DNA of 35,783 bases from a virus. The notes beneath the pieces were generated by a model. It saw only the letters and a list, made by a program, of their open reading frames with translations. It was not told where the DNA came from and searched no databases. Position numbers and translations under genes: made by a program. The stretch lies in the UHGV virus genome UHGV-0117379; one strand, written 5' to 3'. This document shows, piece after piece, positions 1,977 through 12,318 of the stretch; the first letter of the stretch is position 1, and every line of letters starts with the position of its first letter.

Positions 1977-2168
1977 TTATCGTGAGTTTTTAGTACAGAT
2001 TTTTTTGGATTTACTAATAGTTCCATCATTGCAAACGAATTTGCCATCTGAGGTACAGTGAGAAACACCTCCCTTTTTCCCTGAGCAGGGATAATTTCTA
2101 GCATAGGTAGTTAGTGGGTTTAATAACAAAGAACATGACAAAACCACAAAAAATACCTTACCAAGCAT
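1977..2168 (-). CDS. Small secreted Cys-rich protein (63 aa, signal peptide), cargo between int and cI
   Basis: Hydrophobic N-terminus ([23 protein letters not shown]) then about 40 aa with 5 Cys; strong RBS GGGAGGA 4 nt upstream; starts 15 nt after cI stop so likely co-transcribed with cI. Confidence 0.5.
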
Positions 2169-2183: not shown

Positions 2184-2753
2184 CTATTTAACATACTTGA
2201 CTGTTAAACTTATAATTTTACCAATTATTTCAATGTCTTCTATCTTGCATTCGAAGGCTCTGTTTCCACCCTCGACGAAGATTCTTCCACCGGGTAAACG
2301 AGTAATGTCACGGATCGTTATTTCGCCATCAATACTTATTACCCATTTACCATCACGTATATCATCAAATTCTTTATCACAAATAAATTCAGAATTGTTA
2401 TCTGTGATGACAAAAGGTTTTTTAAACGTAGAGGGTAGAAATCCCTTATCAAAAATATAAAAACCGTCTTTCTGCAATGCTCCATCAGACAATAAATATT
2501 TTTCTACTTCTATAGTATTTGTATTTGCTGATGCTTGCTTTGAACCATGCCCTGTTGTTAGCCAATTAAGCGAGGTGCCCGTTTCAAGGGCGCACTGGAT
2601 TACCCAATCTGCTGGAAAAATATCACGCATATAGCGCGTTGCCATGGTGCTCTTAGAAACACCTAAATGATCACAGAGAGCCTGACGAGTACCGAACCCA
2701 TATGCTTCAACTAAACGTTCTATGGCTTTCTTACCGCCGCTATTGAAATCCAC
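2184..2753 (-). CDS. cI: 186-type CI immunity repressor
   Basis: N-terminal HTH (RLVEAYGFG...CALETGTSLNWLTTGHG) and C-terminus (WVISIDGEITIRDITRLPGGRIFVEGGNRAFECKIEDIEIIGK) align with phage 186 CI as recalled; GTG at 2751..2753 preceded by GGAGGA gives 189 aa, consistent with the about 192 aa 186 CI; alternative GTG at 2840. Confidence 0.75.
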   Translation of the reverse strand: MDFNSGGKKAIERLVEAYGFGTRQALCDHLGVSKSTMATRYMRDIFPADWVIQCALETGTSLNWLTTGHGSKQASANTNTIEVEKYLLSDGALQKDGFYIFDKGFLPSTFKKPFVITDNNSEFICDKEFDDIRDGKWVISIDGEITIRDITRLPGGRIFVEGGNRAFECKIEDIEIIGKIISLTVKYVK

Positions 2754-2898
2754 AAGTCCTCCAAAGAAATCCAAAATTCGTTGACAGATTCCAAAAGCGA
2801 TCTTAAAGTTGAACCAGAAGTGTTCTTTTGGAGCCTTCACTACTAATCACGACAAACAACGGCTCGCCACAAGCCATATCTAGAAGGAATGTTGCCTT
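2754..2898. promoter_or_regulatory. Lysis-lysogeny switch region between divergently oriented cI and apl (pR/pL, operators)
   Basis: Intergenic between leftward cI and rightward apl; TTGACA at 2791..2796 with TAAAGT 17 bp downstream is a candidate pR; 186 has the same face-to-face arrangement. Confidence 0.45.
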
Positions 2899-6120: not shown

Positions 6121-8531
6121 GCCATGCTGATATGAACAACTGCAGCGGCTTTAACGAGGTCGCCGCAGCATTCTCATGGAACAGCCCGAAAAAGGCCATT
6201 AACCCTTATCTGGACCCGGCGGAAGTTGCGCCGGTTTCTGCGCTTTCAAACCTGATCACTCTGTACGCTGCCGATAACGAGCAGGAACAACTGCGCCGCG
6301 AGGCACTGAGTGATCAGGTCTGGGAGCGTTATTTCTTTAATGAATCCCGTGATCCTGTCCAACGCGAAATGGAGCAGGATAAGCTAATTAGCCGGGCAAA
6401 GCTGGCGCATGAGCAGCAGCGTTTTAATCCAGACATGGCCATTCTGGCGGACGTCAACGCCCAGCCTTCCCATATCAGCAAGCCGCTGATGCAACGTATT
6501 AAATACTTCAGCAGCCTGGGCAGGCCAAAGGCTTATTCCCGCTATTTGCGTGAGACGATTAAGCCATGCCTGGAACGACTGGAGCATGTACGCGACAGTC
6601 AGCTATCCACTTCTTTTCGCTTTATGGCAAGCCATGAAGGGCTGGACGGCCTGCTGATCCTGCCTGAAATGAGTCAGGATCAGGTGAAACGCCTGTCCAC
6701 CTTGGTAGCTGCGCATATGAGCATGTGCCTTGATACAGCTTGTGGCGATTTGTATGCCACCGATGATGTTACGCCAGAAGAAATCCGCAAGACATGGGAA
6801 AAGGTGGCAGCGGAAACCCTGCGTCTGGATGTTATCCCGCCTGCGTTTGAGCAACTCCGTCGGAAAAGAAACCGCCGTAAACCCGTGCCTTATGAACTCA
6901 TTCCTGGTTCGCTGGCGCGTATGTTATGCGCCGACTGGTGGTATCGGAAATTATGGAAGATGCGTTGCGAATGGCGGGAAGAGCAGTTGCGTGCTGTTTG
7001 CCTGGTCAGCAAAAAAGCATCTCCCTATGTCAGCTATGAAGCCGTGATGCATAAACGTGAGCAGCGCCGTAAGTCGCTGGAGTTTTTCCGTTCTCATGAA
7101 CTGGTGAACGAAGACGGCGACACGCTGGATATGGAAGACGTGGTAAACGCCAGCAGCAGCAACCCTGCGCATCGCCGCAATGAGATGATGGCCTGTGTTA
7201 AAGGTCTGGAGCTTATCGCGGAAATGCGCGGTGACTGCGCCGTTTTCTACACCATCACCTGTCCGTCACGTTTCCATTCCACGCTAAATAACGGCAGGCC
7301 CAACCCGACCTGGACAAATGCGACGGTAAGACAAAGCAGTGATTATCTGGTCGGTATGTTTGCTGCATTTCGTAAGGCGATGCACAAAGCCGGATTACGC
7401 TGGTATGGCGTGCGGGTGGCTGAGCCGCATCATGACGGTACAGTTCACTGGCACCTGTTGTGTTTTATGCGCAAAAAAGATCGCCGCGCCATTACTGCTT
7501 TGTTGCGTAAGTTTGCCATTCGTGAAGACCGCGAGGAGCTGGGTAATAACACGGAACCACGCTTTAAGTCTGAGCTGATAAACCCGCGCAAAGGTACGCC
7601 AACAAGCTACATCGCGAAATACATCAGTAAGAACATTGACGGGCGTGGTCTGGCTGGCGAGATCAGCAAGGAAACGGGTAAATCCCTGCGTGATAACGCC
7701 GAATACGTTAATGCCTGGGCGTCTCTGCATCGTGTTCAGCAATTCCGCTTCTTTGGCATTCCGGGGCGTCAGGCTTACCGTGAACTGCGATTGCTGGCTG
7801 GTCAGGCGGCAAGGCAACAGGGGGACAAAAAAGCAGGTGCGCCGGTACTGGATAACCCGCGCCTTGATGCCATCCTGGCTGCCGCTGATGCTGGCTGTTT
7901 TGCCACCTACATCATGAAGCAGGGCGGCGTACTGGTTCCCCGCAAATATCACCTCATCAGAACCGCTTATGAAATCAACGAAGAGCCGACCGCCTATGGC
8001 GATCACGGTATTCGTATTTATGGCATCTGGTCACCCATTGCAGAGGGCAAGATCTGCACTCATGCGGTGAAGTGGAAAATGGTTCGTAAGGCCGTTGACA
8101 TTCAGGAGGCGGCAGCCGACCAGGGCGCTTGCGCCCCTTGGACTCGTGGCAATAACTGTCCCCTTGCTGAAAATTTGAACCAACAAGGGAAAGACAAATC
8201 AGCTGATGGGGATACCAGAACGGAGATCACCCGCATGGATGACAAGGAGTTGCACGATTACCTGCACAGTATGAGCAAAAAAGAGCGCCGGGAACTGGCA
8301 GCAAGGTTACGCCTGGTGAAACCGAAATGGCGTAAAGACTACAAACAGCGAATTACAGAGCATCAGCGTCAGCAGCTCGTCTATGAACTGAAGTCCAGAG
8401 GATTTGATGGCAGCGAGAAAGAGGTCGATCTGCTCCTTCGCGGTGGCAGTATTCCGTCAGGAGCAGGCCTGCGTATCTTCTATCGGAACCAGCGTTTGCA
8501 GGAAGATGATAAGTGGCGGAACCTGTATTAA
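6117..8531 (+). CDS. A: Replication initiation protein A (P2 gpA family rolling-circle nickase)
   Basis: 804 aa; HWHLLCF and YIAKYISK (paired active-site Tyr) motifs typical of P2 gpA; position after the early operon. Confidence 0.9.
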
Positions 8532-8623
8532 TTACGCGGGTTAACAATTCGTGCTCTTAATAATACCAGGCATATCAGGCTGATGAACGTAAAAAAACGT
8601 TTTACATCAGTAAGATTATTATA

Positions 8624-8643
8624 TACTGTAAATATAAACAGTG
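8624..8643. promoter_or_regulatory. LexA (SOS) box TACTGTAAATATAAACAGTG
   Basis: Perfect CTGT-N8-ACAG with AT-rich spacer, directly upstream of the 8685 ORF; TTTACA -35 at 8601..8606. Confidence 0.7.
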
Positions 8644-8684
8644 GCTATACATACAGTGTTGCGTGTGGTGTCATAGGAGGAAAG

Positions 8685-8873
8685 ATGCAGGACTATTTTT
8701 TGGAGTCTTTGAAGCTCCAGCGCATTGATTTTTTTCTTAAGCTTGTAGCGGCTAGTGAGTGTAGTGATGAAGAGAAGGGGCTGGCTTTGCAATGGGTTTC
8801 TGAACTGACAGATGAACTCATGGCAAAAATCAGAACCCACGAATACAACCGCTCAATGGATGTCATCAGCTGA
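8685..8873 (+). CDS. LexA-controlled small protein (62 aa), possible Tum-like antirepressor
   Basis: ATG 8685 with AGGAGG RBS immediately downstream of the LexA box; occupies the position of 186 tum; no sequence-level recognition. Confidence 0.45.
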   Translation: MQDYFLESLKLQRIDFFLKLVAASECSDEEKGLALQWVSELTDELMAKIRTHEYNRSMDVIS

Positions 8874-8883
8874 GGTGACTTTT

Positions 8884-9117
8884 ATGCGCATTGAAATAAT
8901 GATCGATAAAGAGCAGAAGATTAGCCAGTCTACCCTGGACGCCCTTGAATCCGAGCTTTACCGCAATCTGCGCCCCCTGTATCCCAAGACGGCGATCCGC
9001 ATTCGCAAAGGCAGTGCCAACGGTATCGAGTTGACCGGCTTAAAACTTGATGAGGATAAGCAGCGGGTAATGGAAATTATGCAGCAGGTCTGGGAAGACG
9101 ACAGCTGGCTGCATTAG
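8884..9117 (+). CDS. DinI-family protein
   Basis: 77 aa; MRIEIMIDKEQ...L..LESEL..NL...YP...IRIRKGSANGIELTG...DEDKQRVMEIMQQVWEDDSW matches the DinI pattern (MRIEVTI......ETWESADDW); GAGGTGA RBS. Confidence 0.75.
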   Translation: MRIEIMIDKEQKISQSTLDALESELYRNLRPLYPKTAIRIRKGSANGIELTGLKLDEDKQRVMEIMQQVWEDDSWLH

Positions 9118-9403
9118 CGAACGTTGCGGACGATAAAACTGGCTTTTACCGTCCGCAAGGTTGAACAACGAGCCGTGCGAGGCGTTAGAAATTGCCTTTG
9201 TTAGTGCCTGCTTCTCATAAGAGGCACTATATATGCTAAATGCAGTGGTTTAAGGCAGAAACATCTTGCGCGATTAGGGGCAATGAACTTAAGTTAAGTA
9301 ACGCAACCAACAGTTAAAACGGTTGTCTTAGTTATAAGGAACTTGCTGTTGTGGTTGCTGGTGACGAAGTGTACACTTCCGCGCCGTATAAGAAGGAGGG
9401 GTT

Positions 9404-9622
9404 ATGTCAAGTATCGCCGCATTGAAGCTGGGTAATCCAGTTGAACGTTTGGCACGGGTTCTGAAAGAGAACCAGGACAAGCTCAATCTGAGTAAAGATG
9501 GTTTTGTGTCCGTAGATTTGTCCAACGAAGAAGCTATGAAAGCCATCCGAGATCAGATGGATAAGCTTGAAGGCATCAAAACGAGCACTGTTAAAGCAAA
9601 ATATTATTACAGAACCCGATAA
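9404..9622 (+). CDS. Hypothetical 72-aa protein (first gene of accessory module)
   Basis: Strong RBS AAGGAGGGG; stop overlaps next start (TAATG). Confidence 0.55.
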   Translation: MSSIAALKLGNPVERLARVLKENQDKLNLSKDGFVSVDLSNEEAMKAIRDQMDKLEGIKTSTVKAKYYYRTR

Positions 9623-10464
9623 TGGCAACATTACTTTTAGCAGTGATTTTGGTTAGTGGTTTTATATATGTAAACCTATCACTTTCAACACGTTATAGAT
9701 ATAAGCGTTCCAATGGCTGGGACGCTTATTTTTTTGTGGCTGCATGGGGAATTGTCTTTTTCCTCGCTGGCGGCTTCCTTACCTTCGCTCTTAACATCAG
9801 CGGTGGGTTTCGCTGGTTTTCTAATGCGCTGAATCTGACTCCAGACAGCTTTAACGGGATGTTATCCACCACAACCGATAAACCGCAGCGCATCAATGAA
9901 ATTAAGCAAATCGCGTGGGTTGTGATTTCAATAGTTCTCGCGGCGCTGTTCGGTTGGCTAAACAAACGCCGTACTTCAAAAGGGGATCGCCGTTGGGATG
10001 CACTGGCAAAGGCAGTGGGAAACAATGCTTTTGAATCGCTGCTCATGGAAGCATCAGCTCGCCAGTTTCCTATCATTGCTACACTTTCATCACGCAAAAT
10101 CTATGTAGGGCTGGTGACTTGCCCTGCGTTGGAAAATGGATTGTCGGAACACCTTGAAATTCTCCCCTTGCTGAGCGGATATCGTGATAAAGACGACCTA
10201 ACGATAAATATCACGACAAACTATCATCAGCACTATCTTGATAGCGGTGTTATCAATGGGATGTCGCGCCTGAATATCCAGGATTTCCGTGTGCTTCTCC
10301 CTAAAGATGAAGTTGAAACCATCTCGTTTTTTGATACTGAAACGTATAACAAATTTAAAGAAAACGAAGCGCGTGACCGGAAAGACTGCCGCAAGTTGGG
10401 TGGTAAAAAGCCATCCGCACGCAGGAGAAAGACTGCTGGCGACGCAGAGCAGGGTAGTGCATGA
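9622..10464 (+). CDS. Membrane protein, 280 aa (3-4 N-terminal TM helices plus about 160 aa soluble domain)
   Basis: Hydrophobic stretches LLLAVILVSGFIYV, YFFVAAWGIVFFLAGGFLTFAL, IAWVVISIVLAALFGWL; translationally coupled to the 72-aa ORF. Confidence 0.6.
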   Translation: MATLLLAVILVSGFIYVNLSLSTRYRYKRSNGWDAYFFVAAWGIVFFLAGGFLTFALNISGGFRWFSNALNLTPDSFNGMLSTTTDKPQRINEIKQIAWVVISIVLAALFGWLNKRRTSKGDRRWDALAKAVGNNAFESLLMEASARQFPIIATLSSRKIYVGLVTCPALENGLSEHLEILPLLSGYRDKDDLTINITTNYHQHYLDSGVINGMSRLNIQDFRVLLPKDEVETISFFDTETYNKFKENEARDRKDCRKLGGKKPSARRRKTAGDAEQGSA

Positions 10465-10510
10465 CTATGCTGCATGAATTTGCATGATCGTTTGAGGATC
10501 GTTTTAGCTC

Positions 10511-10538
10511 CGGCCCGCCAGTTCAGGCGGGCTTTTTC
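10511..10538 (+). terminator. Rho-independent terminator after the membrane-protein gene
   Basis: GCCCGCC-AGTTCA-GGCGGGC stem-loop followed by TTTTT. Confidence 0.7.
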
Positions 10539-10584
10539 ATATCTCATGCAGGTGCATGAAAACCACTACACAAAGCGGGCAGGC

Positions 10585-10610
10585 GTGGCGGGGATACGAG
10601 CGCGCGCTCA
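10585..10610. other. Candidate cos site (GGCGTGGCGGGGA...)
   Basis: GGCGTGGCGGGGA at 10591..10603 matches the first 13 nt of the 186/P2 cohesive-end sequence as I recall it; lies between A-side genes and Q as expected. Confidence 0.3.
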
Positions 10611-10665
10611 TTACTTTTATAATTCTAGGGTTATAATACAGGGCTATCTTTCTAGGAGAAAACAC

Positions 10666-12318
10666 ATGTCCTTAGAGTTTATCAAAGAACAGTTGTCAGA
10701 TTTTATCTCATCTACAGAACCAGAAGTAATGGCTATACAGGGTGAATGGGGAATTGGTAAAACCTATACTTGGAATACGTTCCTAAAAGATAATAAAGAT
10801 AAGGTTGCATTTAATAGATATAGTTATGTCTCTCTTTTTGGTATAAATTCACTAGATTCTTTAAAGTATTCTATTTTTGAGAATGCAATTACAAAGGAAT
10901 ATATTGGAAATAAACCTGATTTGGAGACAGCAACAACAAACGCAAGTGGACTTTTTGAATCGTTTTCTCGAAAAGCCGCAGGTTTGTTAAAAGAAGCTCC
11001 TGTTGTAAAAAACTTCTCTACGACACTTGAAGCAATGTCATTTCTGACCGTTTCTAAAATGATTGTAGTAATAGATGACTTAGAAAGGCGTGGCAAAAAC
11101 TTAGATGTTAAAGATGTTTTAGGGCTAGTATCTCTATTAAAGGAGCAGAAGGATTGTAAGGTGGTTCTATTGCTTAACAATGGCACAGCTAGTATGGAGG
11201 ATTATTCTACTTATAAAGAAAAGGTCATTGATAGAGATATCACTTACAATCCAACACCAGAAGAATGCGCAGATATAGCCTATAAAGGTGATTTTCATGT
11301 TTATAACTTGTTAAGTAAATATTCCATTTCTTTAGGTATCAAGAATATTCGAATCTTAAAAAAGATAGAACGTTTTTTCGTGTCCTTAACACCAAATATT
11401 ATAGGTGATGTTGAGACAATTTCAAATGAAGTTGCGCATTCATTAACTCTGTATTGTTGGAGCCATTACGGATTTTCTCCAGAGGGAGATGTGCCATCAC
11501 TAGAATATATTAGGGGAGTGAGGAATATATATACTTATAATGACAAGGAAGAAGGCCATGAGAAAGTCTGGCTTAATACCTTGCTTAAATATGGATATAG
11601 AAAAACGAATGATCTTGATGAGGTTCTTATTGATATGGTTAGATATGGCTATCTTGATAAGAGCAGTTTCCAAAGACAAATAAGCCTAAGGAATGAGGAG
11701 ATTACGCGTGATAATAAACGAGGTTCCTTATCTGAGGCATGGCAGTTCTTTCATAATTCATTTGATGACAATCAAAATCAGGTTGTTGACAAGCTATATC
11801 AAGCGGTGGTTGATGGGATGAAGTATGTGACTCCAAGTGATTTAGATAATGTTGTCGGACTATATAGGGATTTCGGAGAGAATGCTAAGGCGAGTGAATT
11901 GATTGAACAGTTTATTAATTATGGTAACGATGCTCTAAAGGAATATGTTCAATCTATTTATGTGAATGTTCATCCCGTAAGAGATGCTGAGTTGTTGTCA
12001 AAAATTCAAGCCTATTCTAATATTATAAATATTGATGGTTCAATATATGATGTTCTTAAGAAATTATCAGGTCAGAATGGTTGGTCTGATAGACATGAGG
12101 AAATATTGGATGCTGCTTCAGTAGATGACTACTATCAATTATTTAAAAATGTCATTCTTGATGGTGGTGATTCAATAATAGCTACGGCGCTTAAATTCGG
12201 AAATTATAGTAATGGTTCTGATAGAATGAATCGTATAGGGAAAAAGGCAAGGGATGCCTTGATAAGAATTGGAGATGAATCGGCGATTAATAAAATACGT
12301 GTAAGGCGATTTTTGTGA
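10666..12318 (+). CDS. KAP-family P-loop NTPase (550 aa), AT-rich accessory gene
   Basis: Walker A IQGEWGIGKTYTWN (G-x-W-G-x-GKT KAP signature), Walker B MIVVIDDLER; ATG 10666 with AGGAG RBS and TATAAT elements upstream; much lower GC than phage core; flanked by terminators. Confidence 0.8.
   Translation: MSLEFIKEQLSDFISSTEPEVMAIQGEWGIGKTYTWNTFLKDNKDKVAFNRYSYVSLFGINSLDSLKYSIFENAITKEYIGNKPDLETATTNASGLFESFSRKAAGLLKEAPVVKNFSTTLEAMSFLTVSKMIVVIDDLERRGKNLDVKDVLGLVSLLKEQKDCKVVLLLNNGTASMEDYSTYKEKVIDRDITYNPTPEECADIAYKGDFHVYNLLSKYSISLGIKNIRILKKIERFFVSLTPNIIGDVETISNEVAHSLTLYCWSHYGFSPEGDVPSLEYIRGVRNIYTYNDKEEGHEKVWLNTLLKYGYRKTNDLDEVLIDMVRYGYLDKSSFQRQISLRNEEITRDNKRGSLSEAWQFFHNSFDDNQNQVVDKLYQAVVDGMKYVTPSDLDNVVGLYRDFGENAKASELIEQFINYGNDALKEYVQSIYVNVHPVRDAELLSKIQAYSNIINIDGSIYDVLKKLSGQNGWSDRHEEILDAASVDDYYQLFKNVILDGGDSIIATALKFGNYSNGSDRMNRIGKKARDALIRIGDESAINKIRVRRFL

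Follow-up and report, generated by a model that had tools for sequence, protein, structure and literature searches.

A probable tumA-tumB SOS induction operon behind gene A of a P2/186-like prophage

The best described relatives of the locus considered here are the SOS induction genes of prophages 186, Fels-2 and PSP3. In 186 a LexA-repressed promoter, p95, drives expression of Tum, which inhibits the CI repressor by sequestering it reversibly (PMC7708051, PMC3121763). Two protein modules are fused there in a single 146-residue frame, within which internal starts give the DinI-like Tum72, and tum is followed by orf97 and the terminators t95a/t95b. In Fels-2 and PSP3, tum is split by a stop codon, and it is the upstream PSP3 gene that carries antirepressor activity (Lemire et al. 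2011, PMC3121763); the PSP3 annotation describes tumA as 'similar to 5' end 186 tum; UV induction of prophage' and tumB as 'similar to dinI and 3' end of 186 tum'. The Fels-2 operon (STM2728, STM2726.1, which is STM2727 in LT2, and STM2726) responds to a DNA-damaging mutagen, and STM2727, which heads the LexA-regulon table, is raised 5.5- to 14.8-fold (PMC2225428). Fels-2 was lost in all Salmonella LT2 survivors of lexA loss (PMC12626290), and it is the prophage responsible for lexA-null lethality. The same logic recurs in the dinI-gfoA/gftA operons of Gifsy-1/2/3, where a LexA box lies over a DinI homologue and a small antirepressor acting on a non-cleavable repressor (PMC3121763), although gene order is reversed with respect to the locus described here, the prophages are lambdoid and their repressors belong to a different family. 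Here we analyse the 35,783 nucleotides (nt) of UHGV virus genome UHGV-0117379, referred to throughout as the window, in which a predicted LexA-controlled promoter precedes a 62-residue open reading frame (ORF62, here tumA) and a 77-residue DinI-family gene (here tumB).

The window is a P2/186-like (Peduoviridae) prophage with the gene order int, cI, apl-like, cII, fil-like, several small open reading frames (ORFs), a methyltransferase and gene A, the P2/186 replication gene (Phage_GPA type), which ends at 8531. The stretch 8500-9400 is 99.3% identical to Klebsiella phage ST15-OXA48phi14.1 and matches 58 phage records, mainly from Klebsiella and also from Escherichia, Salmonella (Fels-2 among them) and Yersinia. 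Since the left flank (1-642) has no match among E. coli genomes, the host is probably other than E. coli. We consider it very probable that the region behind gene A is an SOS induction operon of a 186/Fels-2-type prophage, working through tumA-tumB. The finding is that of a system already known, the Fels-2/PSP3-type operon, which had been correctly identified.

The promoter and its double LexA operator

Box 1 starts 93 nt past the stop codon of gene A and is the sole exact CTGT-N8-ACAG within the window, with A or T at all eight spacer positions of its core (8626-8641). A preliminary description of this DNA had called it a perfect, textbook LexA box; the 16-nt core is indeed exact, but the full element agrees with the consensus TACTG(TA)5CAGTA at 17 of 20 positions. 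By chance 0.35 matches to the core are expected, and at least one occurs in 28 of 100 shuffles, making the core weak evidence when taken alone, while the 19-mer TACTGT-W8-ACAGT, expected 0.05 times even with two mismatches allowed, argues more strongly. Among related loci, gathered with an alignment of close ORF62 homologues, box 1 stands in the same place in 37 of the 41 that contain an ORF62 homologue; three show a single-base change, and the last lies on a contig not long enough to judge. With about 45 upstream regions anchored on the box, almost all loci have a -35 hexamer, TTTACA or TTCACA, after an A-run; the distance from it to TACTGT is exactly 17 nt, and these 17 nt vary freely while box, -35 and spacing stay constant across Escherichia, Klebsiella, Citrobacter, Enterobacter, Serratia, Pantoea, Erwinia, Tatumella and other genera.

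This footprint and the annotated layout of 186 p95 therefore lead to the -35 and -10 assignments of Table 1, which should place transcription start near 8636 and the two boxes at about -12 to +23. As in the window, the LexA box of 186 starts at the -10 hexamer TACTGT of a LexA-repressed promoter lying after gene A; p95 differs in reading TTCACA-18-TACTGT where the window has TTTACA-17-TACTGT. A generic scan found no plus-strand promoter, because the -10 is TACTGT, which agrees with TATAAT at only three of six positions. The CTGT-N8-ACAG core, its A/T-rich spacer and its overlap with the core promoter make box 1 a predicted LexA operator. Hairpins between gene A and the SOS promoter reach a modest z of -2.3 and have no U-tract, and we claim no terminator there; nor did Rfam return any match across the entire window. 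In two relatives, ST15-OXA48phi14.1 (7249-7268 of its locus, L002) and a prophage of Erwinia piriflorinigrans (L039), CAG in the right arm of box 1 has independently become CAT; LexA binding should be weaker in both, and tumA could be leaky.

A single SOS box had been proposed. Box 1 is real, but that account was incomplete, as a second box overlaps it and makes a double operator. The full element, CTGTAAATATAAACAGTGGCTATACATACAG (8626-8656), has the architecture CTGTAAATATAAACAG-TGG-CTATACAT-ACAG and is matched in none of 100 shuffles. We found this 31-nt arrangement in 25 of the 46 loci examined; among these it is missing from 186 and PSP3, each of which has a single box, and from a Pantoea/Erwinia clade. 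Fels-2 is identical to the window in its -35 and box 1 and differs at a few bases of box 2, and its 47-nt version of the operator matches more than 1,200 plasmids; on small Col-type plasmids the match sits just upstream of a colicin gene. In a column-by-column alignment of the window operator with the colicin plasmid operator, box 2 shares the left arm GTGG with colicin operators, and the cores of the two boxes overlap by one base. Colicin operons thus resemble the window in the 31-nt pattern CTGT-N8-(A/C)CAG-TGG-N8-ACAG, and both control a product lethal to the producing cell. They differ in their downstream genes and in having the -10 upstream of box 1, whereas in the window box 1 itself holds the -10. 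Double SOS boxes of colicin genes are reportedly bound by two LexA dimers and keep lethal expression from coming too early (PMC2994835), and by analogy the same reasoning fits a gene that would trigger prophage lysis.

Table 1. Positions of the predicted operon elements and of the cI gene in the window
Feature	Position	Strand	Basis
-35 (TTTACA) of the SOS promoter, which corresponds to 186 p95	8601..8606	+	By inspection; 17 nt upstream of TACTGT
-10 hexamer TACTGT (left arm of LexA box 1)	8624..8629	+	Same hexamer as annotated 186 p95 -10; invariant in nearly all loci
LexA box 1, TACTGTAAATATAAACAGTG	8624..8643	+	Motif search and conservation
LexA box 2, core GTGGCTATACATACAG (8641-8656)	8639..8658	+	One core base in common with box 1; 0/100 shuffles
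Shine-Dalgarno AGGAGG of tumA	8675..8680	+	Four bases before ATG; AGGAGG/GGAGGG kept across loci
tumA-like gene, 62 aa, predicted CI antirepressor, phrog_698	8685..8873	+	ATG start; profile homology to the N-terminal half of 186 Tum
Shine-Dalgarno GAGGTG of tumB, at the 10-nt intergenic gap	8872..8877	+	Purine-rich Shine-Dalgarno
tumB, DinI-family protein, 77 aa	8884..9117	+	Pfam PF06183, 1.4e-24
Strong hairpin closing the conserved module; may terminate or stabilise the transcript	9120..9162	+	Fold of 9112-9250, z = -3.3
186-type CI repressor, inferred TumA target (maximal ORF; start uncertain)	2184..2840	-	33% identity to 186 CI, E 8e-38

The two proteins and their separate reading frames

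ORF62 is 62 residues long in 36 of 42 copies (the 41 related loci and the window), and synonymous changes among them preserve the protein. A longer, 96-residue reading from 8583 was rejected, as it would traverse the operator and the extension is not conserved. The family is a large one, with 493 clusters at 90% identity and 88 representatives at 50% identity in an exhaustive search, most of them labelled hypothetical. No Pfam or NCBIfam family was found for ORF62.

The protein was compared with the antirepressor half of Tum by means of profiles. A narrow profile built from homologues at least 81% identical reaches 27% probability against a profile of Tum N-terminal (Tum-N) homologues. Divergent representatives from the exhaustive search visibly bridge the ORF62 and Tum-N families, and a broad profile, made from representatives with mutual identities below 50%, matches Tum-N with 97% probability in hhalign (P 1e-10). 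In hmmsearch the broad profile gives 33-35 bits to residues 6-43 of 186 Tum, in the same N-terminal register in both proteins, and the reciprocal Tum-N profile scores ORF62 at 11 bits and PSP3 TumA at 15 bits. PHROG comparisons link the same families: the 186 Tum N-terminal part matches phrog_698 at 5.7e-6, ORF62 matches phrog_1993, the family of PSP3 TumA, at 0.0022, and phrog_8554 is matched by both ORF62 and 186 Tum-N. These profile matches identify ORF62 as a predicted TumA-type protein, homologous to the antirepressor half of Tum. An AlphaFold2 model of TumA forms a two-helix hairpin (helices 2-23 and 28-61, mean confidence score, pLDDT, 89) with the conserved Cys of the family in the turn; searched against viral structures with Foldseek, it returned non-specific helical hairpins only, none with E of 0.001 or below. 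PADLOC matched neither TumA nor TumB to a defence family.

In phage and genome records the 62-residue protein is called 'hypothetical' or, wrongly, 'levan regulatory protein', and phrog_698, phrog_1993 and phrog_8554 are all of 'unknown function'. The profile of phrog_189, 'RecA filament binding protein DinI', spans 151 positions and includes the Tum N-terminal module, so that 186 Tum and its N-terminal half carry the DinI label.

TumB is matched by PF06183 over its full length with 86.6 bits (cutoff 24.2) and by the solved E. coli DinI structure 1GHH over residues 1-75 with 42 bits. Its identity is 86% with PSP3 TumB and 87% with the DinI-family protein of Fels-2. Its 40% identity to residues 71-145 of 186 Tum, the C-terminal half (E 1e-24), agrees with the relation between Tum and DinI given in the preliminary description. 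Against PRK10597, the NCBIfam equivalog of host DinI, TumB scores 54 bits, below the cutoff of 111, and is therefore a phage paralogue of the TumB type rather than a chromosomal dinI. The acidic C-terminus, DEDKQRVMEIMQQVWEDDSW, aligns with that of DinI, and binding to RecA filaments is predicted. A hairpin between the two genes (8862-8879), flagged as terminator-like by a generic scan, is not conserved in relatives and was rejected as a regulatory element.

The preliminary description had placed the box over the promoter of a small ORF followed by a DinI-family ORF, in a Tum-like module after gene A as in 186, with the putative antirepressor and the DinI moiety on separate polypeptides. All of this agrees with our analysis: the box overlaps the -10, the layout is that of the annotated p95/LexA/tum region of 186, and the TGA stop of tumA (8871-8873) is followed after a 10-nt gap by a new ATG. 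The window has, then, the architecture of PSP3 and Fels-2 and not the single frame of 186 Tum, with both modules homologous to those of 186. What did not hold is that such a split is unusual, as PSP3 and Fels-2 were published as split and all 41 related loci are either split or without a DinI gene. None is fused; in about 22 a separate DinI gene starts at an ATG some 10-20 nt past the tumA stop, always with a purine-rich Shine-Dalgarno sequence directly after that stop, and DinI is missing from about 19. Of the 120 clusters listed for the 186-type subfamily, 102 are stand-alone proteins of 63-92 residues, some of them named 'Tum protein', and no full-length 146-residue protein is found among these 120 Tum-N clusters. 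The 186-type loci L046 and L047 have the boxed small gene without DinI; one such locus encodes a 63-residue Tum-N protein that follows gene A and a LexA box and lacks DinI downstream. The 41 loci and the stand-alone Tum-N clusters therefore point to the LexA box and the small TumA gene as the invariant core, with DinI apparently an optional passenger; the fused 186 Tum looks like the exception.

The Fels-2 operon occupies the same place after gene A as that of the window, STM2728 is 98% identical to ORF62, and the DinI-family gene likewise follows after 10 nt. Fels-2 differs from the window in host, CI allele and int type, and in a third gene of 186 orf97 size (243 residues) where the window has unrelated cargo after tumB. 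PSP3 also has a split tumA/tumB behind a LexA box after gene A, but its TumA belongs to another subfamily (phrog_1993, against phrog_698 in the window), to which ORF62 is linked by profiles only, with no BLAST match.

The CI repressor as proposed target, and other readings

Both Phage_CI_repr and Phage_CI_C match the window CI in Pfam. Peptidase_S24 scores 16 bits, far below its cutoff, and no LexA-like Ala-Gly/Ser-Lys motif was seen by eye. With 186-type domains and no peptidase above threshold, direct RecA-mediated cleavage of this CI is therefore unlikely, and SOS induction would need an antirepressor. In a healthy lysogen, two LexA dimers would sit on the double overlapping operator, at about -12 to +23 of the TTTACA-17-TACTGT promoter, and keep the operon off. 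DNA damage would lead to RecA-stimulated self-cleavage of LexA, freeing the promoter and giving one mRNA for TumA and TumB. TumA would then bind the non-self-cleaving CI and stop it from binding DNA, a sequestration that may be stoichiometric and reversible as in 186, so that the early lytic promoter would be de-repressed and lytic growth begin. TumB, most likely a binder of RecA filaments, would adjust how strong the SOS signal is or how long it lasts, and appears to be an accessory rather than the trigger. The sequence features, conservation and homologies on which this scheme is built are those of the window and its relatives; TumA-CI binding and the role of TumB in the window we infer, and LexA control, damage induction and antirepressor activity would hold by analogy with the literature on 186, PSP3 and Fels-2.

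Several observations weigh against this scheme. For the present allele LexA binding, transcription and TumA-CI contact are all predictions. BLASTP aligns ORF62 with neither 186 Tum nor PSP3 TumA, so that the alignment to 186 Tum proposed in the preliminary description came out directly for TumB, over the C-terminal half, and for ORF62 as profile homology to Tum-N; even the ORF62-family profile scores PSP3 TumA weakly, at 3.4 bits, and the homology rests on profiles. Bunny and colleagues are said to have stated in a 2002 abstract that LT2 prophages are not strongly inducible by ultraviolet light. Across 33 prophages that have both tumA and cI, TumA shows a median pairwise identity of 79% and CI one of 43%, with no co-variation between them (Spearman rho -0.15); when two TumA proteins are at least 95% identical, the CIs that accompany them are mostly just 35-72% identical. 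Such missing co-variation is unexpected for a specific protein-protein pair. An example is ST15-OXA48phi14.1, whose TumA is 98% identical to that of the window and whose CI is just 38% identical. Conservation within CI is uneven, with 28 of 63 positions at least 90% conserved in the N-terminal DNA-binding domain and 15 of 99 in the C-terminal one. Either a conserved surface of CI is what TumA recognises, or TumA has a target other than CI.

The missing co-variation also lends something to two other readings of the operon. TumB might be the induction effector, acting for instance on RecA or CI, with ORF62 an unrelated small SOS-induced protein. Early work did treat dinI-like genes as 'tum homologues', the 186 RefSeq record names all four tum coding sequences 'RecA filament binding protein DinI', and TumB is as highly conserved as its identity to the PSP3 protein indicates. 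Yet the box and the small gene persist without DinI in almost half of the ORF62 loci and in L046 and L047, ORF62 is homologous to the N-terminal half of Tum, the PSP3 antirepressor is the upstream gene, and non-polar dinI deletions in Gifsy prophages left induction unchanged (PMC3121763); an effector role for TumB is, we consider, very unlikely. It is also unlikely, if somewhat easier to entertain, that TumA and TumB are both SOS modulators acting on host RecA or LexA and not on CI, the prophage being induced in another way or never. TumA is indeed much more conserved than CI, its gene is physically linked to that of a RecA-binding DinI homologue, and phage proteins that bind LexA are known, such as gp7 of GIL01 (PMC4551915). 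Set against this, 186 Tum acts on CI (PMC3121763, PMC7708051) and ORF62 is homologous to that very part of Tum; a 186-type CI with no cleavage domain above threshold calls for some antirepressor if SOS induction is to occur, and the well-conserved N-terminal domain of CI makes a common target available.

That the LexA box is a chance or decayed motif, the operon being constitutive or silent in the window prophage, we regard as extremely improbable. The frequency of the 16-nt core in shuffled sequence would allow it, and the CAT variants of ST15-OXA48phi14.1 and the Erwinia prophage demonstrate that the operator can decay. In the window, however, both boxes are intact and the double operator has no chance match; box, -35 and spacing are kept across genera while flanking bases vary, and box 1 and the -35 are those of Fels-2, whose operon is damage-induced. 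The antirepressor reading, in which TumA acts on CI under LexA control, is the one we prefer.

The int-side box, downstream cargo and wider reach of TumA

A relaxed search revealed a further LexA-like box, TACTGTATGTATAACCAGT, at 1818-1836, which reads on the minus strand and lies between a perfect -35 TTGACA (1841-1836) and a -10 AAAAAT (1818-1813). The int ATG (1788) lies about 49 nt downstream. The motif CATTGAC(A/C)ACTG(G/T)-N8-ACAGT occurs in at least 120 viral contigs, and in at least 107 of them it is followed after 29-34 nt by the start of an Int homologue (47-100% identical). The 37 box variants differ in the spacer; the arms were fixed by the search pattern, so that the way in which the loci were collected biases arm conservation. 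Folding of the int leader (within 1789-1841) gives a hairpin that has the int Shine-Dalgarno sequence in its 3' arm, and 20 of 22 diverse leaders do the same, with z below -2 and differing stem sequences. RNAalifold returned no consensus structure for these leaders, since their hairpins do not line up when the sequences are aligned, and the leaders were then folded one by one. Together the box and promoter suggest SOS-controlled int expression in the lineage of the window prophage. In most other prophages of the ORF62 family int abuts cI with no box, and a shallow literature search found no paper on LexA-controlled int in P2-like phages. Between cI and int the window has a 63-residue ORF (1977-2168, minus strand) with a signal-peptide-like N-terminus and several Cys, belonging to phrog_6000 ('unknown function').

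On the other side, similarity to most relatives ends at about 9115 or at 9188, right after tumB. Two strong hairpins lie here, that of Table 1 and another at 9201-9230, with a combined z of -3.3 and no U-tract after either on either strand. Beyond the mosaic boundary, variable cargo (9189-12318) takes the place of 186 orf97 and comprises a 72-residue ORF (phrog_9843), a 280-residue membrane protein (phrog_3630) and a 614-residue P-loop NTPase of the KAP family, with a match (5.7e-28) to PDC-S49, a candidate defence family in PADLOC. The nearest relative has a TIR-domain protein in place of the NTPase, and the region is probably a P2-type defence hotspot.

If TumA does recognise a conserved CI surface, cross-induction between co-resident prophages would be allowed, as has been described for the Gifsy antirepressors (PMC3121763). 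TumA proteins 65-100% identical occur across prophages whose CIs are about 27-70% identical. A tentative extension, which we think possible but less likely than not, is that Fels-2-type TumA (phrog_698) is a 'generic' antirepressor, able to recognise CIs of many immunity types by their conserved N-terminal domain and to cross-induce co-resident P2-like prophages, with its expression delayed by the colicin-like double LexA operator and excision separately wired to the SOS response through the LexA-boxed promoter and the Shine-Dalgarno-sequestering hairpin before int.

The value of the present finding is mainly one of annotation, as the 62-residue protein can now be annotated as a TumA-like antirepressor under LexA control. 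Antibiotics that trigger the SOS response should induce this Klebsiella-type prophage, as well as its many relatives in clinical Enterobacterales, by way of antirepression and not of repressor cleavage. If true, the pairing of one TumA type with many CI types, the double operator and the LexA-boxed int would bear on cross-talk between prophages and on the coupling of excision to DNA damage.

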